A stretch of 44,581 nucleotides of DNA, taken from sequence record OQ696342.1. One strand, given 5' to 3'. Shown in pieces: positions 1,161 to 44,457 of the stretch. A program made the translations under genes and the position numbers. Every line of letters starts with the position of its first letter. Position 1 is the stretch's first letter. The stretch is from Escherichia phage vB_EcoS-K1_SXAU_B4. The notes under the pieces are model-generated. The model saw only the letters and a list, made by a program, of their open reading frames with translations. It searched no databases and had not been told where the DNA came from.

Positions 1161-1577
1161 TCACAGCCTCTTGGTGAATGCAATAAAGTTAATTGACAAT
1201 GGTCGTTTGGCCCATCCGTTTTCTACAATCAGCGGCCCCAGGCTAACCGATTGAACCTCGGCGCAGATGTCGTTACGTGAAAATGACTTACCTGCTTTAA
1301 ACGCCGTGTTGAGTAAGTCTGCCATTTTATTGATTGGCGCGCTACCTTTCACCGATGCGTAGTTAATGTCTACCTGGTAAATACCGGAGCGTTGTTCCGT
1401 GAAGAACAAATCCGCCTGTTCCGTATCCGCCAGCAACATGTAACTTGCCAGATACGGGGTATTGGTTGACGTAGGCGCATCGATGTTCTCAAGAGCAACC
1501 TTGATGCCGTTGGCGGCCCCAAAGGCTACCAGCGGCACATCGAACGCTTTTGTTAAGTCCTCAAAGTAGCCCATCAT
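1161..1577 (-). CDS. Tail/neck component (tail terminator-like), hypothetical
   Basis: ORF track 138 aa; positioned between neck genes and the major tail gene; tightly stacked with neighbours. Confidence 0.5.
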   Translation of the reverse strand: MMGYFEDLTKAFDVPLVAFGAANGIKVALENIDAPTSTNTPYLASYMLLADTEQADLFFTEQRSGIYQVDINYASVKGSAPINKMADLLNTAFKAGKSFSRNDICAEVQSVSLGPLIVENGWAKRPLSINFIAFTKRL

Positions 1578-6179: not shown

Positions 6180-6411
6180 GGGTAATTACCTCTGATTTCG
6201 TCTTGCCTTCGTTGTCAGCGGCTGCGGCCTTTGATTCATCCTGCTGCTGCCGTTGTGTTTTCTTCGCTAACTCAGCCTGTGCTTTCTGCTGCTGCTGCGA
6301 AACGAGATTAGCCCGGCCTTCTTTCCAGCCGATGCGGTATTGATAGTAGCCGTGAGCATATAACAGGATGATGAAACACGCCCCCGCTACGACAGTTGCT
6401 CTAAGATTCAT
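6025..6411 (-). CDS. i-spanin (Rz-like)
   Basis: 128 aa; N-terminal transmembrane segment (TVVAGACFIILLYAHGYY) followed by a Q/A/K-rich coiled-coil region. Confidence 0.65.
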   Translation of the reverse strand: MNLRATVVAGACFIILLYAHGYYQYRIGWKEGRANLVSQQQQKAQAELAKKTQRQQQDESKAAAADNEGKTKSEVITREVVKYIKTPGRSMCTFDDARVLLKSRAVANANSIPGYDDDAAAVQTGTAK

Positions 6412-6730
6412 GTTTCTCCTTTCTCGATAAGTAAAGCCCCGCCATAAAGCGGGGCGCTAGTCCTTATCATTTAAACATAGAAACGGCGTAATCTCAGTAA
6501 ACCCGTTACTTTTTACACAAGCAATAGAGTATGACCCTTCCGAACGCGTCAGCGTAACTACACTCAGGACTTACGTCCCGCTCCGTTACCTGCCCGCGCC
6601 GCGGTCGCTTGTTCATACTTCACAAGCTCAGGTGGAGCTTAGCACATTTTTAGTGAAAAGTCAACTATTCGAATAGTTTATTCCAAGATTTACAATTCGG
6701 TGGAATAACTGGAATACACAAACAAATAGT

Positions 6731-6759
6731 TTGCACACACCAATATAATAGGGTACTAT
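6731..6759 (+). promoter_or_regulatory. Sigma70-type promoter TTGCAC-N17-TACTAT (cassette family copy)
   Basis: -35 at 6731..6736, -10 at 6754..6759; conserved leader with RBS GGAG 7 nt before ATG 6787. Confidence 0.6.
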
Positions 6760-6786
6760 TCAGTTATCGAAACGAGGAGATGAAAA

Positions 6787-7308
6787 ATGGTTACTACAGT
6801 AATTACTTTCCCCGCGTATGTAGGGGCAAAAATCTGCAGGGCGAAAAATGATGTGCGCTATTATTTGAATGCGTTTTACATAGACCCGGAAGGGTGGATA
6901 GTGTCTACGGACGGCCATAGATTGTTCTGCGACAATGTTAAGACAAACGTCGAGAATGGGGTTCTCATAGACATCAAAGGGAGAGAGCCTTCTAAATTTA
7001 ACTACGCGGAGGTAGACCACGACAACGGCAGTGTATCTTTCTATGACGGCAGTCGTGCGCTTATATGTACACTTCCGGTGGATGTTGTAGACGGAAAATT
7101 TCCTGACTGGCGACGTGTTGCGCACATCACGCCGGGGGCGGTTGATAGCATAGGATTCACCATGTCCTACTTGGCAGACGCGCACAAGATTTCTAAGGCA
7201 TACAAAAATGAAATTGCTCGTTTCGATTTCCAGGACCAAACCAGAGGATGCAAAATATCGTTTTCAAACACTGCATTTATGGTGCTAATGCCGGCGCGAT
7301 TTAAATAA
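6787..7308 (+). CDS. Truncated beta sliding clamp (DnaN-like) protein
   Basis: 173 aa; motifs DVRYYLN, TDGHRL, VDGKFPDWRRV, SIGFTMSYL and C-terminal MVLMPARF match, in order, remembered E. coli DnaN motifs (QDVRYYLNG, ATDGHRLA, VDGRFPDYRRV, EIGFNVSYV, YVVMPMRL); covers roughly domain II and part of domain III only. Confidence 0.7.
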   Translation: MVTTVITFPAYVGAKICRAKNDVRYYLNAFYIDPEGWIVSTDGHRLFCDNVKTNVENGVLIDIKGREPSKFNYAEVDHDNGSVSFYDGSRALICTLPVDVVDGKFPDWRRVAHITPGAVDSIGFTMSYLADAHKISKAYKNEIARFDFQDQTRGCKISFSNTAFMVLMPARFK

Positions 7309-7312
7309 AACT

Positions 7313-7335
7313 AAGGCCCCGTAATGGGGCCTTTT
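7313..7335. terminator. Bidirectional rho-independent terminator (aggcccc-gtaat-ggggcct + TTTT)
   Basis: GC-rich 7-bp stem flanked by an A-run upstream and a T-run downstream, between convergent genes. Confidence 0.7.
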
Positions 7336-7336
7336 A

Positions 7337-7798
7337 TCATTCCGGCTTAGTGACCTTCGCCGCTTTACTTACCGCCTCTACACCATCGGCATCAGTAACT
7401 TTAACGAAGTATTCACCGACCGCATTAACCGTCAGAGACAAAGCCTCTTCCGGGGCGTTGACCACTTCCTTACCATCTTTGTACCATGTCAGCACATACG
7501 GCGCTTTACCCGCTTTAACTTCGACAGTGAGAGTCGCGCTGCCGTCCGCCAGTTCCGTGTCTTTCGGTTGCACAGAGAAATACACATCCCCCGCATCAGC
7601 CAGATACGGAATCTCGTAAAGCATCCCCGCGGCGGGTAGCGCAATACCGGTTTTATCTGCAAACGGCATATTGTCTACTGGTGTACCGAGTACACTTTCA
7701 TCTTCAATAAACACCACGTTCTCGCCAGAGCCAGATACACGGGCGTACTGGACTACGCGACGCGACGGAACATCAGTTACTTTGAAAAAGCCCATCAT
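7337..7798 (-). CDS. Structural protein with C-terminal Ig-like domain
   Basis: 153 aa; YVLTWYKDGKEV...GEYFVKVTDADG pattern typical of Ig-like domains. Confidence 0.55.
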   Translation of the reverse strand: MMGFFKVTDVPSRRVVQYARVSGSGENVVFIEDESVLGTPVDNMPFADKTGIALPAAGMLYEIPYLADAGDVYFSVQPKDTELADGSATLTVEVKAGKAPYVLTWYKDGKEVVNAPEEALSLTVNAVGEYFVKVTDADGVEAVSKAAKVTKPE

Positions 7799-8901
7799 TA
7801 TTCCCCTTTCAGATAATCAGCAACACGTTTATCGAGTTCCGCCATCTGCTTAAGCGTGAGCGGATTCCCGAAACCATCTACAGATATTACGCGAAACTCT
7901 TCCGGCGATATACCGCTGTTGCGGAAAATCTTACCGCGAACAGGGCCGAGCGCCTGGTCCTGAAACCATGCAGGTTGTTGTTTCAGGAACTCGTAATAAG
8001 TGGTGTCGGCGCTTACCTGAGTACCGCCGTCCGCACCTTTAGCCGCTCGTTTCGCTCCTACGTCCAGGAAGTCGAACTCGGAACTGATTACAGGGGCTGT
8101 GCACGACCGGCAATTCGGATGGGCGGGAGGCATCGGCCCTTTACCGATTTCCCACGTCATCCCATCTCTGGCCTTGCAAACGGCTGAGGTCCTAGAATCA
8201 AGAGTAGACACCCACTCGTACTTCTCGATGATGTCGTCGTTCTGGCGGTACGTCTCGTTGCGAGCTTCGTTGGATACGTGAGACAGCGCGGTGCGGATTA
8301 CTGTGGCTGCGTTACGTTCAGAGATGTCCGCCAGCCCGCCCGCGCCTACTACATTCTTAACAATCTGCCGTGTTGTCTGGCCTTGTACGAAACCCATCTT
8401 AACGCCAGTTACAAGACGTGCTACTTCCGTTTCACCCCAGCCCGACATCAGTTTAGTGAAGTCAACAGGCTTGTCGCTCAACGATAGCGGTTGAAACTCG
8501 GCAGCAGCCCACACCTGTTCAGCGGTAGGCGTAACAAATTCCGCATCTACGTTGGCGGTCAGTGTCTTTACGTTCCATTCAGCCTCATACGCCGCCAGCT
8601 CCTTAAGGTCTTCTGTCAGCTTTGTTTGCCAGTCACCTGTAAGTCCAGTTAGCGCTTCTTCGAGGTCACGTAACAGTTTATTCAGCCGGGCGGTGCTGCG
8701 ACCTTCGTCGCCAAATAGCAGAACCTGCCGTTTGATTTCGTCGCGCATTTCCTGAATGAACGGCGCAAGGTCTTTCACTTCACCGGAAGCGGTGCGTTGT
8801 AGCCATATCTGGTGGCTGATTAAGGATGTAAGTAAGCTCATAGGCCCTCCTGTAGTATCGACAGTGTAACGCATAAAAATAATATTTGCAGACACCAACA
8901 T
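7798..8901 (-). CDS. Head morphogenesis protein (Mu F-like / SPP1 gp7-like minor head protein)
   Basis: 367 aa; LDSRTSAVCKARDGMTW...PPAHPNCRSCTAP matches the Mu F family motif; downstream of the portal gene. Confidence 0.8.
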   Translation of the reverse strand: MLVSANIIFMRYTVDTTGGPMSLLTSLISHQIWLQRTASGEVKDLAPFIQEMRDEIKRQVLLFGDEGRSTARLNKLLRDLEEALTGLTGDWQTKLTEDLKELAAYEAEWNVKTLTANVDAEFVTPTAEQVWAAAEFQPLSLSDKPVDFTKLMSGWGETEVARLVTGVKMGFVQGQTTRQIVKNVVGAGGLADISERNAATVIRTALSHVSNEARNETYRQNDDIIEKYEWVSTLDSRTSAVCKARDGMTWEIGKGPMPPAHPNCRSCTAPVISSEFDFLDVGAKRAAKGADGGTQVSADTTYYEFLKQQPAWFQDQALGPVRGKIFRNSGISPEEFRVISVDGFGNPLTLKQMAELDKRVADYLKGE

Positions 8902-8948: not shown

Positions 8949-9134
8949 ATGACTAACACATACGAACTTACTACAAAGAACGTACAGGCGTATGAAGTTG
9001 TGGAAAACGGCCCAGACTCTACGGATTATGTGGTCGCTGTAGTAAAAGGCGAGAATGCCGCTCTGCTGCGAGCCTCCGCCATGCAAGAGGAAAACGGCTA
9101 CCTCGGATATGGATATACAATTCGTAAGGCCTAA
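8949..9134 (+). CDS. Hypothetical protein (moron island)
   Basis: 61 aa; plus-strand ORF inside the minus-strand structural module, behind a cassette promoter. Confidence 0.45.
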   Translation: MTNTYELTTKNVQAYEVVENGPDSTDYVVAVVKGENAALLRASAMQEENGYLGYGYTIRKA

Positions 9135-9172
9135 GGGCCTTACCTTAATAATTATTTAATCGGAGGTGTGCT

Positions 9173-9403
9173 ATGCGTTGTGGGGTTAAAAAACTCTATG
9201 CAGAAAAAGGGGTTATCGGCGTCTCTTTTATGGTTGTTGATGATGTTGTGTACCACAGTCTTCCAGGTGTAAAAGTTGGCAACAGGTACACGTGGTACAA
9301 AACAAATTCAGGGCTGGAATTTATAGACAGTCTTGTTGCGAAAGGTGTGATTAAACAGGTAGATTGTGACTGGAAGTTTAAACAACCAGTAATACACTTC
9401 TGA
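9173..9403 (+). CDS. Hypothetical protein (moron island)
   Basis: 76 aa ORF; RBS GGAGG upstream. Confidence 0.45.
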   Translation: MRCGVKKLYAEKGVIGVSFMVVDDVVYHSLPGVKVGNRYTWYKTNSGLEFIDSLVAKGVIKQVDCDWKFKQPVIHF

Positions 9404-9412
9404 GAAATCACC

Positions 9413-9721
9413 ATGCGGAAAAGAAAGAAGACTACTAAAAAATACGCGTACAGATATCTTGTCGGGGATTCTAGCGAGTTCCCGGATTCAGAAGACTACG
9501 ATACATTTAAAGCTGTTATATTCGCCAGCGGATGTGTTTATGTGTGCCAACATTACGACGTCGACGCTCCGCAAACAATACACATCCTGTACGCCGATTT
9601 CAGAACGTCTGAATGGATGAAATCATGGTTCAATGGTTTTACAGATTCAATAATATCAAGAGATATTGGCAATCATAAACTCGTAGCGCTAAGGGAAGTC
9701 TGGAAAACTAAGGCCCCATAA
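9413..9721 (+). CDS. Hypothetical protein (moron island)
   Basis: 102 aa ORF followed by a strong terminator. Confidence 0.45.
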   Translation: MRKRKKTTKKYAYRYLVGDSSEFPDSEDYDTFKAVIFASGCVYVCQHYDVDAPQTIHILYADFRTSEWMKSWFNGFTDSIISRDIGNHKLVALREVWKTKAP

Positions 9722-26170: not shown

Positions 26171-29100
26171 ATGAGTTACCTGTTCTTAGACTTTGAAACA
26201 TTCTCCGAAGCCGATTTAAAGAAAGTTGGCTCCTACGCTTACGCCGAACACCCGACTACAGAAGTGCTTATCTGTACCTATGCTTTTGATGACGAGCCTG
26301 TGCAGGTATGGGATTGCACCAACGGCAGCGACATGCCGGGGGATTTGCACCGCGCCTTGCGCCGCCTGGTTAAGCCAAACAGTCGCATCAAGATGGTGTG
26401 GCACAACGGCTCAATGTTCGATCGCCTAATCATGAAACACTGCTGGGGCTTTGATATTCCGGTAAGCAACACCATCGATACGATGATTTGGGCGTTTCGT
26501 CACGCGCTGCCTGGTTCACTTGATGCGTTGTGTGAAGTGCTGGGGGTATCTGCTGACAACGCGAAGGATAAACGCGGCAAGGCGCTGATTCAGCGTTTCT
26601 CTAAACCGACGCCGAAGAACTACAAAATACGCCGCTACACCGCCGAAACACACCCGGACGAGTGGGCGCTGTTCATCAAGTACGCTGTGAGCGACATCAC
26701 TGCGATGCGTGAAGTCTTCCATAAGCTGCCGCGTTGGGGTAACTCAGAGTTCGAGGACCGTGTACTGGAACTGGACCAGTTAATCAATGACCGTGGGTTT
26801 AAGGTTGACGTGGCACTGGCGGAAGCCGCGATTGAAGCCGTGGAGAAACACAAAGCGAAGTTACAGGAAGAAGCCCAACGCAAATACGGCGGCTCGCTTA
26901 CCGGTAAAGACTTCCTTCCTATTCTGCGTGAACTGGCCCCAGCGCACCGAATCCACAACGCGCAGAAGTCGACACTGAATGACCTGCTGGCGGATGATGA
27001 TTTACCTGACGACGCCCGCACTATTATCGAAATGCGCCTCGGGGCCGCGTCCACAGCGTCAACGAAATATACACCGCTGCTGCTGGGCCGCTCTTCGGAC
27101 GACCGCCGTCGTGGTTGCTTGCAGTACGGCGGGGCAAAACGCACTCTGCGATGGGCCGGTAAAGGCTTCCAGCCGCAGAACCTCGCGCGCGGGTACTATC
27201 ACGATGACGAACTGGATAAAGGCATTTCAGCGTTACTTAAGGGTCGTGCGCATCGCCGTTTCGATGTAGCCAAGCTAACGGCATCGACGGTTCGTAGCTG
27301 CATCATTCCGGAAGCAGGACATAAGTTTGTCGTCGCCGATTACTCGAACGTTGAAGGCCGGGGGCTTGCGTGGCTGGCGGGTGAAGAAACCGCGCTTGAT
27401 ACTTTCCGCGCCGGGTTGGATATTTATTGCGTAACCGCAGGTAAGATGTTTGGCATGGACCCAGACGACATTAAGAAAGAACGTAAAGACTTGCGCCAGA
27501 TTGGTAAAGCCTGCCTTCACCGCCATACCCAAGTTTTGACCGATGGCGGATTTAAGGATATTATGGCGGTCACATCGACAGATAAAGTATGGAGTGGTGA
27601 AAAATGGGTGAATACAAAAGGCGCGCACCTTATGGGGTGGAAACCGGTAATAAATGTGGACGGGGTGCTAATGACCGAAGACCACAAAATCTTGGCGCAT
27701 TCCTGGAAGCAGGCAAAGCAACTCGCTTCAAACAGATATATGATGGGCCTCGCCCTGGAGAGAGGTATGGACGCTTGGTTATCCTGCGCGAGTTACCAAA
27801 ACGACAAGGCCAAAGACAACTACTCGTCCAATGTGATTGCGGAGAGATGCCAGGGCGGGTCTATTATGACAACGTCAGAGCGGGTAAAACCACTCAATGC
27901 AACCGCTGCGCCCTTGAAGCAACAAAAAAATATCGTAAACAGTATTTCTGCTACGAAGACGCAATGCCGGATGATGCGCACAGAACGCGATTACTCAACC
28001 GGCTGTCAGCGGCGATCACGCGAACAACAAGCCCCAGGGATAAGGGTTATAAAAACTATGGGGCAAGAGGCATCACGGTATTCGACCAGTGGAGGACTGA
28101 TAAAAGGTCTTTTCTTAGATATGTTCAAACTCTGGAAGGCTGGGATGACCCGAACCTCGAAATGGATAGAATCGACACAGACGGTAACTACGAACCTGGA
28201 AACATTCGGTTTGTCAGCCGTTCTGAAAACTGCCGAAACAGACGGCAAATACCCGAGCTTCAACGAAAGTATGATGCAGCCGTTGCCCGCATTGCTGAAC
28301 TTGAGCGGGAAATTAACCTACTGCGAGCCGGTGTACGACCTGATTGATGTGGAAGACGGCAACCGTTTTCTTATAGCCTCAGACTCTGGCTTTCTTGTGG
28401 CGCATAACTGCGAGCTTGGCCTCGGCTACGAGGGTGGCGTCGGGGCGTTCGTTCAGTTTGCTAAAAACTTAGGTCTCGACCTTATTGAGATGGCAAAAAC
28501 AATGGACGGGACTTTCCCCGACCACATCTGGGCTGCTACCGCACGTGGGTATGAGTGGGCGCGTATTCAGGAAGCAAAGCGGCCACCACATCCAGGTGAA
28601 AAGGACGACCGACCATCGTATATTCTGGACAAGAAAGTGTGGCGCACATGTGACGCAATCAAGCGTATGTGGCGCGAGTCACACCCCGAAACAGTAGCGT
28701 TCTGGCGCGACCTTAAAGACGGAATTTTAGCCGCTGTTCGTAATCCTGGTCGTGAATTTTGGGCGGGAGCGCACTTGCGCGGGAATGGGGAAAGGGCTAT
28801 CCGCATATGGCGCACTGTAGAATTTGATTCATCCGGCAGGAAGGTTCCAGGTTGGTGGTTGTGTGTGGAGTTGCCGTCAGGCCGCATCCTCTCGTATCCG
28901 GGAATCGGCGTTAGTGTGACAAAGGAAACAGACGAAGACGGACGAGTAAACACGAATGTGCGAATCAAGTATCAGGGTGAAAACCAGTTAACCCGCCAAT
29001 GGACTACCCTGTACACCCACGGCGGCAAAGCCTGCGAAAACATTGTTCAGGCGCTGTGCCGTGATTTACTCGCATATGCAATGATTAATGTTGAGGGTGG

Positions 29101-29269
29101 CGGGTATCCCATCGTGCTTTCTGTACACGATGAACTGGTGTGCGAAACTCCAGACACACCGGAATACAATGTCGCAGAGCTTGAGCGGTTGATGTGCGCG
29201 TTGCCCGAGTGGGCAGAAGGCTTCCCTCTTGTAGCGGAAGGGCAGGAGTTAAAACGCTATGCTAAGTAA
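26171..29269 (+). CDS. Family A DNA polymerase (3'-5' exonuclease plus polymerase domains) interrupted by an in-frame intein at 27512..28408
   Basis: Exo motifs DFETFS, HNGSMFD, YAVSDI; Pol motif A VVADYSNVEGRGLAW; motif B RQIGKA|C...|CELGLGYEGG split by the intein; motif C SVHDELV. Confidence 0.9.
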   Translation: MSYLFLDFETFSEADLKKVGSYAYAEHPTTEVLICTYAFDDEPVQVWDCTNGSDMPGDLHRALRRLVKPNSRIKMVWHNGSMFDRLIMKHCWGFDIPVSNTIDTMIWAFRHALPGSLDALCEVLGVSADNAKDKRGKALIQRFSKPTPKNYKIRRYTAETHPDEWALFIKYAVSDITAMREVFHKLPRWGNSEFEDRVLELDQLINDRGFKVDVALAEAAIEAVEKHKAKLQEEAQRKYGGSLTGKDFLPILRELAPAHRIHNAQKSTLNDLLADDDLPDDARTIIEMRLGAASTASTKYTPLLLGRSSDDRRRGCLQYGGAKRTLRWAGKGFQPQNLARGYYHDDELDKGISALLKGRAHRRFDVAKLTASTVRSCIIPEAGHKFVVADYSNVEGRGLAWLAGEETALDTFRAGLDIYCVTAGKMFGMDPDDIKKERKDLRQIGKACLHRHTQVLTDGGFKDIMAVTSTDKVWSGEKWVNTKGAHLMGWKPVINVDGVLMTEDHKILAHSWKQAKQLASNRYMMGLALERGMDAWLSCASYQNDKAKDNYSSNVIAERCQGGSIMTTSERVKPLNATAAPLKQQKNIVNSISATKTQCRMMRTERDYSTGCQRRSREQQAPGIRVIKTMGQEASRYSTSGGLIKGLFLDMFKLWKAGMTRTSKWIESTQTVTTNLETFGLSAVLKTAETDGKYPSFNESMMQPLPALLNLSGKLTYCEPVYDLIDVEDGNRFLIASDSGFLVAHNCELGLGYEGGVGAFVQFAKNLGLDLIEMAKTMDGTFPDHIWAATARGYEWARIQEAKRPPHPGEKDDRPSYILDKKVWRTCDAIKRMWRESHPETVAFWRDLKDGILAAVRNPGREFWAGAHLRGNGERAIRIWRTVEFDSSGRKVPGWWLCVELPSGRILSYPGIGVSVTKETDEDGRVNTNVRIKYQGENQLTRQWTTLYTHGGKACENIVQALCRDLLAYAMINVEGGGYPIVLSVHDELVCETPDTPEYNVAELERLMCALPEWAEGFPLVAEGQELKRYAK
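27512..28408 (+). mobile_element. Intein (299 codons) inserted in polymerase motif B
   Basis: Block A CLHRHTQVLTDGGFKDI, block B VLMTEDHKIL, blocks F/G VYDLIDVEDGNRFLIASDSGFLVAHN followed by Cys+1; the in-frame central part has no recognisable endonuclease motif. Confidence 0.8.
27604..28347 (+). CDS. HNH endonuclease (HNH_3-like) encoded in an alternative frame, nested entirely inside the intein
   Basis: Own RBS GGAG (27590..27593) and ATG 27604 just after an in-frame stop; Cys cluster CDCG...QCNRC and HNH core NYGARGITVFDQW...LEMDRIDTDGNYEPGNIRFVSRSENCRNRR. Confidence 0.7.
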   Translation: MGEYKRRAPYGVETGNKCGRGANDRRPQNLGAFLEAGKATRFKQIYDGPRPGERYGRLVILRELPKRQGQRQLLVQCDCGEMPGRVYYDNVRAGKTTQCNRCALEATKKYRKQYFCYEDAMPDDAHRTRLLNRLSAAITRTTSPRDKGYKNYGARGITVFDQWRTDKRSFLRYVQTLEGWDDPNLEMDRIDTDGNYEPGNIRFVSRSENCRNRRQIPELQRKYDAAVARIAELEREINLLRAGVRPD

Positions 29270-42106: not shown

Positions 42107-43237
42107 ATGGCCCAGAAGAAAATAACCGACGAACAGTTACAGGAAGAATTGAACGCCGGAGTTAAAACTATCGATATAGCCCGTAAATACTGCATCTCAG
42201 ACCGCGTTATTCGTATACGTAAAGCTAAGCTGGCTAAGAAAGGCGTGGGGCACGGTCGCGACGTTAGTCATCTTGTGCCAGACGGTTACAAGATTAAAGG
42301 CACGTCGTCACTGGTAGACGAGTTCGGCAACACTAAGCTGCAATGGGTTAAGACCGACACCGATGCTGAACGTCAGGTCGAGTTGATGAAAGCCGTAATT
42401 GAAGGCATGAAGTCGGAGATTACGCCAGTTTCACCGGTTAAAGCAGCCCGCGCCAAACGTGATGACAAACTACTTAATCTTTACACTGTGTCTGATTTCC
42501 ATCTCGGTATGCTGGCGTGGGCCGACGAGAGCGGCGACGACTGGGATATGAAAATTGCGGAAGACCTGTTCTCCCGTTGGTTTGACGCAGCGTTTCAGAA
42601 AGCGCCTGACGCGGGAACAGGGGTTATTAACCTGCTGGGTGACTTCGCGCACTTCGATAGCCTGGATGCCGTTACACCTGAGTCGCGTCACGTGTTGGAC
42701 GCAGACACTCGCTACCAGAAACTTGTCCGCTACATGATTCGTATGGTCCGCCGTGTGGTAGATATGGCGCTGGTTAAACATAAAACCGTTCGCTTGCTTA
42801 TCGTACAAGGGAACCATGACCCTGTAGGCTCTGTATGGCTGGCAGAAATGTTCACGACTTTATACTCAAACGACAGCCGAGTGATTGTCGATACGTCGCC
42901 GGATGTTTACAAGATGGTGCAACACGGCAAAACGACTCTGTTCTTTCATCATGGGCATAAAGCACGATTCGACGCTATTGAACCAGTTATGATTGCCAAG
43001 TTCCGAAAAGCATTTGGCGAGAGTGTTTACAGCTACGCCCACGTAGGCCACCTGCACCATCAGAAGATTGTAGAAAGCCGTAACATGATTGTTGAGCAGC
43101 ACCGCACCCTTGCGGCGAAAGACGCCTACGCCTCTCGCGGTGGATGGATGTCGGCCCGGAGTGCAAATGTAATTACTTATAGCGCCGAATATGGTGAGGT
43201 CGCACGTTTAACTATTTCACCGGAGATGCTGGGATGA
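42107..43237 (+). CDS. Calcineurin-like metallophosphoesterase with an N-terminal HTH-like region
   Basis: 376 aa; motifs VSDFHLG, LLGDFAHFD, QGNHD, HHGH, GHLHH. Confidence 0.65.
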   Translation: MAQKKITDEQLQEELNAGVKTIDIARKYCISDRVIRIRKAKLAKKGVGHGRDVSHLVPDGYKIKGTSSLVDEFGNTKLQWVKTDTDAERQVELMKAVIEGMKSEITPVSPVKAARAKRDDKLLNLYTVSDFHLGMLAWADESGDDWDMKIAEDLFSRWFDAAFQKAPDAGTGVINLLGDFAHFDSLDAVTPESRHVLDADTRYQKLVRYMIRMVRRVVDMALVKHKTVRLLIVQGNHDPVGSVWLAEMFTTLYSNDSRVIVDTSPDVYKMVQHGKTTLFFHHGHKARFDAIEPVMIAKFRKAFGESVYSYAHVGHLHHQKIVESRNMIVEQHRTLAAKDAYASRGGWMSARSANVITYSAEYGEVARLTISPEMLG

Positions 43238-43719
43238 AAGATATTGTAATTTTCGATTTAGATGGAACATTAGCAGACGGTACGCATCGCTTACACCTGT
43301 TGCCGAAAGATAACTACAACGAAACATGGGCGTGGAAACCATTTAACATGGCGTGCAAAGATGATGCGCCGATTAAAGATAACATCGAACTGTGTAACGC
43401 TCTTAATCGTCGCTATGCCGTTATTATTTTAACCGGCCGCAGTGATGACGCAGAAAAAGAAACAAGAATGTGGCTGCAGCGCCACCGCGTCGAATTTTAT
43501 CAGCTAATCATGCGTAGCAAACACGACAACAGAAAAGACATCGTAATTAAAGAAGAGGTGTTGCGCGCTATCGGGCTGGAAAGAATCTTGTGCGCATTCG
43601 ACGACTCGCCAGCGGTGATTAAGCATTTCCGTGGCTTAGGAATCACGACGCACGCGGTTACTGAATACGACTGTAACGGGAACTCTACACACTTAAAATC
43701 ACACGGGAGCGATAAATAA
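43234..43719 (+). CDS. HAD-family phosphatase (nucleotidase / polynucleotide 3'-phosphatase-like)
   Basis: 161 aa; FDLDGTL (DxDGT motif I), ILTGRS (motif II), FDDS (motif IV). Confidence 0.65.
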   Translation: MKDIVIFDLDGTLADGTHRLHLLPKDNYNETWAWKPFNMACKDDAPIKDNIELCNALNRRYAVIILTGRSDDAEKETRMWLQRHRVEFYQLIMRSKHDNRKDIVIKEEVLRAIGLERILCAFDDSPAVIKHFRGLGITTHAVTEYDCNGNSTHLKSHGSDK

Positions 43720-44288
43720 TGGCTAAGGTAATTATTCTTAATGGTCCTGCGGGTTGCGGGAAAGACACACTTGCTATGGCACTGGTAGAAATGGGCTTTG
43801 CGAAAGGAACTACCAGTTTCAAGAATCCAATGTTCAATATCGCTCTGGCGGCGTTAGGCCCGGATGTTTACCACGAGTTTCTCGACGGCTACGACGACCG
43901 GGCGCGGAAAGAAAAGCCAGAAGGCTTCCTTAATGGCTTGTCGCGGCGTCAGTTCATGATTGCTATATCTGAGCAATTCATTAAACCGGTACTTGGTAGT
44001 GATTATTTCGGTAAGTATCTTGCTGAAAACTTGCCAGACGGCGACGAAGTTTTTGTAGTGTCCGACGGCGGGTTCTCCAGCGAAGTAGCCCCTATCGTCG
44101 CCGCGGGTCATGATGTAAGAATCGTTCGCCTGCACCGAGAAGGCTATACGTTTGAGGGGGACAGCCGCGGTTATCTGTATGATATTGAGGGGGTAGTACA
44201 TCATGACGTCGCCGTCGTTCCGGGCGAGATTACATTAACGGCGGCTGCGATTGCTAATAGAATCCTAGGTATTTACCCAAATGCGTGA
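43719..44288 (+). CDS. P-loop kinase, dNMP kinase-like (T4 gp1-like)
   Basis: 189 aa; P-loop GPAGCGKDT resembles T4 dNMP kinase GVKRSGKDT. Confidence 0.6.
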   Translation: MAKVIILNGPAGCGKDTLAMALVEMGFAKGTTSFKNPMFNIALAALGPDVYHEFLDGYDDRARKEKPEGFLNGLSRRQFMIAISEQFIKPVLGSDYFGKYLAENLPDGDEVFVVSDGGFSSEVAPIVAAGHDVRIVRLHREGYTFEGDSRGYLYDIEGVVHHDVAVVPGEITLTAAAIANRILGIYPNA

Positions 44289-44295
44289 GGGCACA

Positions 44296-44457
44296 ATGGG
44301 AACAATATACGTTATCCGCGTATATGACGAAGAATGGGATGAGTGGGTTGATATTTACGCCGTAGGTAGCAAGGAAGAGGCCGCAAAAGAGATGACAGAA
44401 CGGAGTGACAGAGGTCAGTTAACTAACTTCTACGAAATGCCATTCAAAAGTGAGTAA
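44296..44457 (+). CDS. Small acidic hypothetical protein (53 aa)
   Basis: Manually found ORF (MGTIYVIRVYDEEWDEWVDIYAVGSKEEAAKEM...) followed by a terminator hairpin. Confidence 0.3.
   Translation: MGTIYVIRVYDEEWDEWVDIYAVGSKEEAAKEMTERSDRGQLTNFYEMPFKSE

Follow-up and report, generated by a model that had tools for sequence, protein, structure and literature searches.

A truncated, pocket-bearing homologue of the beta sliding clamp encoded in the head module of an Escherichia Kagunavirus

Nearly all enzymes of bacterial replication and repair are organised through a hub, the peptide pocket of the beta sliding clamp (DnaN), which is also a target for antibiotics. The ligands of this pocket include the alpha and epsilon subunits of DNA polymerase (Pol) III, the clamp-loader subunit delta, Hda, Pol I, II, IV, and V, MutS, MutL, and ligase. 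Here we describe a DnaN homologue of 173 aa, hereafter the mini-clamp, encoded on the plus strand at positions 6787 to 7308 of a 44,581-nucleotide stretch of DNA from Escherichia phage vB_EcoS-K1_SXAU_B4 (OQ696342.1); this whole stretch is referred to as the window. The genome hosting this open reading frame (ORF) is a Kagunavirus genome, and its 2-kb surroundings share 90–93% identity with the E. coli Kagunavirus (Guernseyvirinae) phages fFiEco03, Snoke, and Ivi. Compared with E. coli DnaN (PDB 2POL/1MMI; Pfam DNA_pol3_beta_2/_3), it is alike in domain II and the linker that follows, and again over the last half of domain III, and it ends in an identical MPxR C-terminus. In contrast, the mini-clamp has 173 rather than 366 aa, possesses neither side of the dimer interface, has lost one inner helix, and is near-neutral where DnaN has an acidic isoelectric point (pI).

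The closest natural architectural analogue appears to be E. coli beta*, reportedly a short, UV-induced DnaN made from an internal start and said to have been described by Skaliter et al. and Paz-Elizur et al. in J Biol Chem in 1996. It is said to be a natural N-terminal truncation at about the domain I/II boundary, close to where the mini-clamp starts (DnaN ~129–135). Whereas beta* reportedly keeps the whole of domain III and oligomerises into a functional clamp, the mini-clamp also deletes DnaN 253–311 and, unlike beta*, belongs to a gene family of its own that has diverged. In likely mode of action, the closest analogues may be the herpesvirus clamp-fold factors that form no ring. UL44 is a C-shaped head-to-head dimer and UL42 a monomer, and a pocket near the connector loop holds the polymerase peptide without a closed ring. 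The mini-clamp would share with them a non-ring clamp fold, and a symmetric dimer is predicted for it too; however, UL44 and UL42 consist of two full domains with a proven basic DNA-binding face, and they have no detectable sequence relationship to it.

Phage-encoded clamp folds are also represented by T4/RB69 gp45 and by full-length phage DnaN proteins (e.g., the ‘beta sliding clamp’ of Ralstonia phage Heva). These are ring formers of two or three full domains served by dedicated or host loaders, whereas the mini-clamp is a 1.5-domain fragment. A phage takeover strategy aimed at the host clamp system is a theme shared with Twort Gp168, an unrelated small protein that plugs the DNA channel of the host clamp (PMC8565349); the mini-clamp would instead imitate the docking site of the clamp.

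The gene itself is not a discovery and has already been recognised as DnaN-like. GenBank relatives annotate it as ‘DNA polymerase III sliding clamp/beta subunit’, the Snoke record reports an HHpred match of 99.88% to DnaN, and a genome paper calls it a sliding clamp and assumes a processivity clamp (PMC9825357). An original prediction, made by a model from the DNA sequence, had noted no characterised phage clamp of this truncated kind. This stands insofar as our literature searches returned genome notes (PMC9825357) and no functional or structural study of the mini-clamp, but DnaN-like annotation of the gene is routine. What the literature searched does not contain is its recognition as the minimal, pocket-only, ring-incompetent clamp of a very large phage family. 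We estimate, at roughly two chances in three, that the mini-clamp is a ring-incompetent binder of clamp-binding motifs.

A truncated homologue of the beta clamp

ORF 6787–7308 is a real gene. A Shine-Dalgarno sequence precedes its start codon, and purifying selection was evident from a pairwise ratio of non-synonymous to synonymous substitution (dN/dS) of ~0.1 against two relatives.

6787–7308, plus strand: mini-clamp gene, 173 aa, ATG start (ORF, DnaN homology, AlphaFold2, Foldseek, pocket identity, dN/dS)
6774–6779, plus strand: Shine-Dalgarno sequence GAGGAG, 7 nt 5' of the ATG (read in the sequence; a ribosome-binding site is annotated there in Snoke)

Five DnaN motifs had been picked out from the translation alone, and all of them occur in the product in the order given: DVRYYLN (residues 22–28), TDGHRL (41–46), VDGKFPDWRRV (101–111), SIGFTMSYL (121–129), and MVLMPARF (165–172). 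Alignments by phmmer and BLASTP place them on E. coli DnaN from domain II through the true C-terminus. A phmmer search of PDB sequences matched E. coli DnaN at E=8e-7, with residues 16–117 corresponding to DnaN 144–253 and a second stretch, 116–171, to DnaN 311–365. In agreement, BLASTP against E. coli DnaN paired residues 19–116 with DnaN 147–252 (32% identity, E=7e-9) and residues 117–172 with DnaN 312–366 (34% identity, E=8e-5). Overall identity is ~20%, and the profile of a 62-member family alignment matched E. coli DnaN at E=1e-32.

To evaluate the fold, we ran AlphaFold2 with the 62-member alignment, which returned a confident clamp fold (predicted local distance difference test score, pLDDT, 95.9; predicted TM-score, pTM, 0.91). 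Foldseek comparison of this model with the PDB disclosed only beta clamps (E ~3e-8, probability 1.00, query TM-score (TMq) 0.65–0.69), the alignments spanning ~255 columns with the extra segment of the target skipped. The top PDB matches were full-length beta clamps by both sequence and fold. Similarity to DnaN is thus significant at the sequence, profile, and fold levels. Pfam and NCBIfam also recognise beta-clamp families in the mini-clamp, with scores under their cut-offs: the single protein reaches 16.6 bits for the central domain PF02767, below the 27-bit cut-off, and 17.9 bits for TIGR00663 against a cut-off of 137.65. The PF02767 cut-off was passed by nine of the ten distant family members tested. 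Together with the family profile and the Foldseek probability to E. coli beta, these members establish the central-domain homology as significant.

Counterparts in the mini-clamp exist only for DnaN 147–252 and 312–366, short of a three-domain architecture of ~366 aa. The original prediction had placed domain I and part of domain III among the missing regions, and the alignments bear this out: DnaN 1 to ~128 is absent, as is 253–311, the first half of domain III. It had also raised the possibility that a sequence correction upstream would reveal a full-length clamp. A complete gene masked by a frameshift or a mis-called start is ruled out, since a stop codon two codons 5' of the ATG closes the upstream frame, tblastn with full-length DnaN found only residues 147–252 and no domain-I-like sequence in the whole window, and more than 100 homologues share the short length of 169–180 aa. 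The mini-clamp is therefore a truncated beta-clamp homologue that extends from domain II to the true C-terminus. It lacks three hallmarks of the DnaN family, namely the three domains, the dimer interface, and scores above the curated cut-offs, and for this reason it should not be filed as ‘the sliding clamp’.

The predicted secondary structures follow one another as a beta-alpha-beta-beta-beta unit, a second unit, a linker containing FPDWRRV, and a last beta-alpha-beta-beta-beta unit ending in MPARF. The helix of the second unit, which would be the second inner, DNA-facing helix of domain II, is lost in this subfamily, while longer relatives keep both inner helices. What remains of the clamp is domain II with both its halves, followed by the linker to domain III and the C-terminal half of that domain. 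Each clamp domain has its first half placed distal to the domain before it, so that within the ring the first half of domain II packs against the second half of domain III, and the dimer interface is supplied by the first half of domain III. Judged by this topology, the three half-domains kept in the mini-clamp would lie side by side in space, with one end of the arc cleanly cut away.

The clamp-binding pocket and the oligomeric state

In E. coli DnaN, subsite I of the pocket is formed by R152, L155, T172, G174, H175, R176, L177, P242, R246, V247, V360, and M362, and subsite II by H175, N320, Y323, V344, M362, P363, M364, and R365 (PMC11139829). Mapping through HMMER alignments placed these positions at R24, L27, T41, G43, H44, R45, L46, P106, R110, V111, V166, M168, T125, Y128, T152, P169, A170, and R171 of the mini-clamp. 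Of these 18 residues, 15 are identical to E. coli DnaN, against the ~20% background. Conservation within the family was examined with a set of 19 positions, comprising 17 of the 18 mapped residues plus Y26 (DnaN Y154) and F172 (DnaN L366). The mean frequency of the top residue in the 62-member alignment was 0.82 for this set versus 0.40 for all other positions (Mann-Whitney p=2e-8). The invariant or near-invariant columns (T41, G43, P106, D22, R24, Y25, Y26, D42, H44, R45, D102, D107, W108, R109, R110, Y128, M168, P169, and R171) lie nearly all within or beside the pocket. By the identity of its residues, the pocket for clamp-binding motifs is intact at both subsites. The retained elements would build a hydrophobic pocket for motifs of the QLxLF type.

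The dimer interface of beta involves I78, F106, K74, R96, R103, and R105 on domain I and I272, L273, and E298–E304 on the first half of domain III (PMC11139829). All of these residues fall in the segments deleted from the mini-clamp. With both sides of the interface gone, normal head-to-tail ring closure, either with itself or with host beta, is not expected. The suggestion in the original prediction that a half-clamp could heterodimerise with the host clamp is accordingly disfavoured for the normal interface. Monomeric beta has been described as binding the clamp-loader subunit delta ~50-fold tighter than the ring does (PMC11139829).

An isolated half-domain would expose a surface that is normally packed on its sister half. 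Two copies of the mini-clamp, and likewise of 23 homologues, were joined by a 30-residue Gly/Ser linker and submitted to AlphaFold2. The prediction reached a pTM of 0.86 for the 376-residue chain, with disorder confined to the linker, and strands 121–125 and 143–150 of the half-domain were regular in the predicted dimer and not in the monomer. This model suggests a dimer through the orphan half-domain, in which two copies probably pair to present two pockets.

A different assembly would be a closed ring of four 1.5-domain protomers (12 half-domains) in alternating orientation, loaded by the host machinery and acting as a phage-specific processivity factor. We regard this as highly improbable. 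The domain arithmetic of clamps is flexible (2 × 3 in beta, 3 × 2 in gp45 and PCNA), the delta-docking pocket appears intact by its residues, longer family members retain both inner helices, and beta*, which is said to consist of domains II-III, reportedly acts as a trimer according to the 1996 literature. However, such an assembly presupposes two new symmetric interfaces and implies pockets on both faces, the canonical interface is wholly deleted, and the Kagunavirus subfamily is without one of the inner helices.

Distribution of the family and candidate functions

By tblastn, 229 phage records encode the protein, and coverage is ≥80% in 227; the phages include those of Salmonella, Escherichia, Klebsiella, Vibrio, Proteus, Burkholderia, and others. 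An exhaustive profile search at E≤1e-30 gave at least 393 clusters (50% identity), of which the 150 best-scoring are all 169–302 aa in length and span the whole profile. Among the BFVD structures, many phage proteins of 163–266 aa resemble the mini-clamp (TMq 0.73–0.88), with hosts in Proteobacteria, Actinobacteria, and Firmicutes; full-length phage DnaN copies rank lower in the same match list. A tblastn search of plasmids yielded for the most part complete dnaN genes, which tended to be on large plasmids, or else partial matches, and a plasmid-borne family was accordingly rejected. Within the head module, the gene takes the same slot on the opposite strand in Kagunavirus, a Jersey-like Salmonella phage, Swiduovirus swi2, and Vibrio Roufvirus pYD38-A. 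It thus counts as core and syntenic, not as variable.

The 229 records label the protein ‘DNA polymerase III beta/sliding clamp’, ‘beta clamp domain-containing protein’, ‘hypothetical’, or ‘RusA-like Holliday junction resolvase’. The last label derives from PHROG 3007, which the mini-clamp matches strongly (E=3e-37). A RusA-like resolvase was rejected as an identity, because a Pfam scan at E≤10 gave only two beta-clamp families and no RusA (PF05866), and the fold search returned only clamps. Membership in PHROG 3007 is right, while the RusA-like label is wrong and looks like an annotation error that has propagated to many GenBank phage records.

A role outside replication is a further candidate. 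The protein would then serve counter-defence, acting as a decoy for immune or toxin systems of the host in which the beta clamp or its motifs are monitored or used, or its fold would have been turned to an unrelated interaction, as the RusA-like label of PHROG 3007 would imply. The gene does lie in an insulated, low-GC accessory cassette and, in other phages, among small early or accessory genes. We consider a role of this kind improbable, given that the RusA domain is absent even at the permissive Pfam threshold and its label looks erroneous, that PADLOC yields no match for the mini-clamp, that the conservation of exactly the clamp pocket favours a clamp-type ligand, and that the gene is core and syntenic. 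A known component of anti-phage defence was likewise rejected, based on the same PADLOC search.

The neighbours of the gene outside Kagunavirus bear on a further possibility. In swi2 (L003, 3234–5501) and pYD38-A (L004, 1827–3765), the mini-clamp gene closes a short operon on the opposite strand whose first gene encodes a ParB-HTH/KorB-like protein. In the latter, the sequence QMHLSL conforms to the hexameric clamp-binding consensus; it is, however, part of the HTH region and offers a weak hint. A DUF932 gene precedes the mini-clamp in two phage contigs, one of which (L008) runs on into a Pol A gene; the DUF932-linked loci are L007, 6697–8576, and L011, 4414–6609. In an integrase island of P. 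aeruginosa (L010, 8974–11010), a 232-aa mini-clamp overlaps the gene for an NA37 nucleoid-associated protein; the 103-aa ORF after this mini-clamp has QFDIF near its C-terminus, again a weak hint. The pI is 7.7 for the window protein, 8.4–8.9 for three of the four other members checked, and 5.8 for the fourth.

These observations could reflect a loader-independent tether or adaptor resembling UL44/UL42. An open C-shaped dimer would bind DNA directly or through a DNA-binding partner, and its two pockets would recruit host Pol III core, Pol I, ligase, and repair polymerases to phage DNA, a positive role in replication, recombination, or repair. The pI of 7.7–8.9 in four of the five members checked is in agreement with such a protein, as are the DNA-binding-protein neighbours in Swiduovirus and Roufvirus (ParB-HTH/KorB-like), the P. 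aeruginosa island (NA37), and the two contigs (DUF932). The loop equivalent to DnaN 148–154, which includes the DNA-contacting Q149 position, is near-invariant, and so is K134 on the retained inner helix; the pocket conservation and the predicted half-domain dimer would serve a tether equally, and phages without a polymerase could make use of one. However, one inner helix is lost in this subfamily, the Pol A of the window has no clamp-binding motif, and the neighbour associations vary by lineage, the solitary gene of Kagunavirus having none. We consider a tether unlikely, although it is the main rival to the view that the mini-clamp acts as a decoy.

To find phage partners, we screened the proteins of the window for clamp-binding motifs. 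Strict motifs were absent from ORFs of ≥100 aa, none was found in Pol A, and loose motifs occurred about as often as expected by chance (~12 seen versus ~20 expected, a rough estimate). A phage-encoded partner bearing such a motif was thus rejected, with none above chance in the window and none shared across lineages. Two individual matches, both probably due to chance, were QADLF at residue 54 of a tail-module protein (1161–1577, minus strand), whose Ivi counterpart, by gene order only, is annotated as the tail terminator, and QVLLF at residue 59 of the Mu-F-like head protein (7798–8901, minus strand).

Mini-clamps occur in phages with Pol A (the window and L008) and also in swi2. The replication-type genes of swi2 are a primase, a helicase, exonuclease VIII, and a recombinase; no polymerase is annotated there, nor did Pfam find one among the six proteins of swi2 that were searched. 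A processivity factor for the phage Pol A, one of the roles offered in the original prediction, is disfavoured as a general function, both by swi2 without a detectable polymerase and by the missing motif in the Pol A of the window. The size and consistently short length of the family, spread over phages with Pol A and one with no detectable polymerase, point to a host-encoded ligand. As no phage partner is shared across lineages and no phage motif rises above chance, the universal clamp-binding proteins of the host are the likeliest ligands.

Of the functional ideas in the original prediction, the sequestering of clamp-binding proteins is the most plausible, and a decoy or competitor is the version that we tentatively favour, at somewhat less than even odds. 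The mini-clamp would most likely be an early product, given an insulated cassette that shares its strand with the replication genes. Away from DNA, it would compete with host beta for the clamp-binding proteins of the host, acting as a sink for, e.g., delta or the clamp loader, the Pol III core, Hda, and repair factors, and would thereby re-programme host replication and repair to the benefit of the phage. What we infer here is that motifs are bound, that two copies pair, when the protein is made, and whether it inhibits or recruits.

Several points weigh against this proposal. Peptide binding is deduced from the pocket residues, which are among the most conserved and structurally important in any beta clamp and are enriched by a homology search. 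The dimer comes from one linker-fused AlphaFold2 run, and Foldseek comparison of the predicted dimer gave a TMq of 0.33 with one copy superposed at a time, a low value that reflects the fact that a two-fold-related dimer is not alignable in sequence order. Early expression is read from strand and layout, and the candidate promoter matches the consensus weakly. Phages that rely on host Pol III, such as swi2, would themselves be harmed by a general decoy. Lastly, the neutral-to-basic pI and the DNA-binding neighbours (ParB-like, NA37, and DUF932) fit a DNA-tethered adaptor at least equally well.

Mini-clamps could, as a tentative generalisation, form a large phage class of 1.5-domain, non-ring dimers with two host-type pockets that re-route clamp-dependent host enzymes without encircling DNA. 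If true, this would be a new mode of replisome hijack, in which mimicry of the docking site captures the clamp loader, Pol III, Hda, and repair polymerases. A minimal, ring-free pocket selected in hundreds of phage lineages would illustrate viral use of the hub, be it through titration or recruitment of host factors. The mini-clamp would offer a small soluble scaffold to study and screen pocket ligands. It would also correct a widespread mislabelling: some records name a full ‘DNA polymerase III beta subunit/sliding clamp’ and thereby suggest a processivity ring, and others, wrongly, a ‘RusA-like resolvase’.

The cassette and other features of the window

The annotated gene order in Kagunavirus is terminase, portal, Mu-F-like head morphogenesis, Hoc-like decoration, the mini-clamp on the opposite strand, spanins, scaffold, and major capsid; the ORFs and Pfam matches of the window agree with this order. 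The description of a plus-strand gene amid minus-strand head genes is therefore accurate, with the Mu-F-like and Hoc-like genes on one side and the spanins, scaffold, and major capsid on the other. The replication genes of the window lie on the plus strand like the mini-clamp gene, and include an AAA_25 primase/helicase-like protein, a DUF2800/PD-(D/E)XK exonuclease, an Enc34-type single-stranded DNA-binding protein, a family A DNA polymerase, and an SNF2 helicase. The phage looks virulent in lifestyle. Around the mini-clamp gene, the following elements were recognised.

6731–6759, plus strand: candidate promoter region, TTGCAC (6731–6736), N17, and TACTAT (6754–6759), with an embedded TATAAT (6744–6749)
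7313–7333, both strands: bidirectional, intrinsic-terminator-like GC-rich hairpin (terminator scan; annotated on both strands in Snoke)
6436–6455, minus strand: terminator-like hairpin at the other edge of the cassette (terminator scan)
6412–6786, no strand assigned: conserved intergenic or regulatory region upstream of the mini-clamp gene, containing a small ORF (6506–6616)

The original prediction had given the gene a strong promoter and a terminator of its own. The two promoter hexamers are literally there, but their strength is unsupported: they match the sigma-70 consensus at three of six and four of six positions, and no plus-strand site 5' of the gene emerged from a promoter scan. A perfect TATAAT at 6744–6749 is invariant in relatives and is not accompanied by a good -35 element. 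Both it and TACTAT are unchanged in Snoke and Ivi, while the -35 candidate varies. A terminator is supported, as the hairpin at 7313–7333 scores as one on both strands; it is common to the convergent mini-clamp (plus strand) and Hoc-like decoration (minus strand) genes. With terminators at both edges of the cassette, minus-strand transcription would be bracketed on either side of the mini-clamp gene.

The region at 6412–6786 has a mean column identity of 97% among the window, Snoke, and Ivi, versus ~91% in the surrounding 2 kb. Its small ORF (6506–6616, minus strand) encodes 36 aa and is hypothetical in the Snoke annotation. The region has a GC-rich core. A structured RNA or tRNA was rejected there, as Rfam and ARAGORN returned no match and the fold z-score of -1.4 is not significantly stable. 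The GC content across 6400–7400 is 0.40–0.48, compared with 0.50–0.58 in the flanking head genes. The term ‘moron’, which had been applied to the gene, is only partly apt: it suits an apparently autonomous, opposite-strand, terminator-bracketed cassette of lower GC, but a sporadic insertion is contradicted by the occupation of the same slot in several genera.

Elsewhere in the window, the family A DNA polymerase (26171–29269, plus strand) has 1032 aa versus 746 aa in Ivi, owing to one insertion of ~293 aa at residues ~449–742. The junctions of this insertion look intein-like (GKA/C at the start and VAHN/C at the end), and no intein or homing-endonuclease Pfam match was found in the insert. A second low-GC islet (8949–9721, plus strand; GC 0.42–0.45) with three ORFs of 61, 76, and 102 aa is located between the Mu-F-like morphogenesis and portal genes; in Snoke, the morphogenesis gene adjoining this position carries an intein instead. 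A further plus-strand islet (42107–44457) within the minus-strand tail module contains a 376-aa ORF without a Pfam match, whose Ivi counterpart, assigned by gene order only, is annotated as a ‘putative DNA repair exonuclease’. The equivalent islet of Ivi also holds a gene for a ‘putative superinfection immunity protein’.

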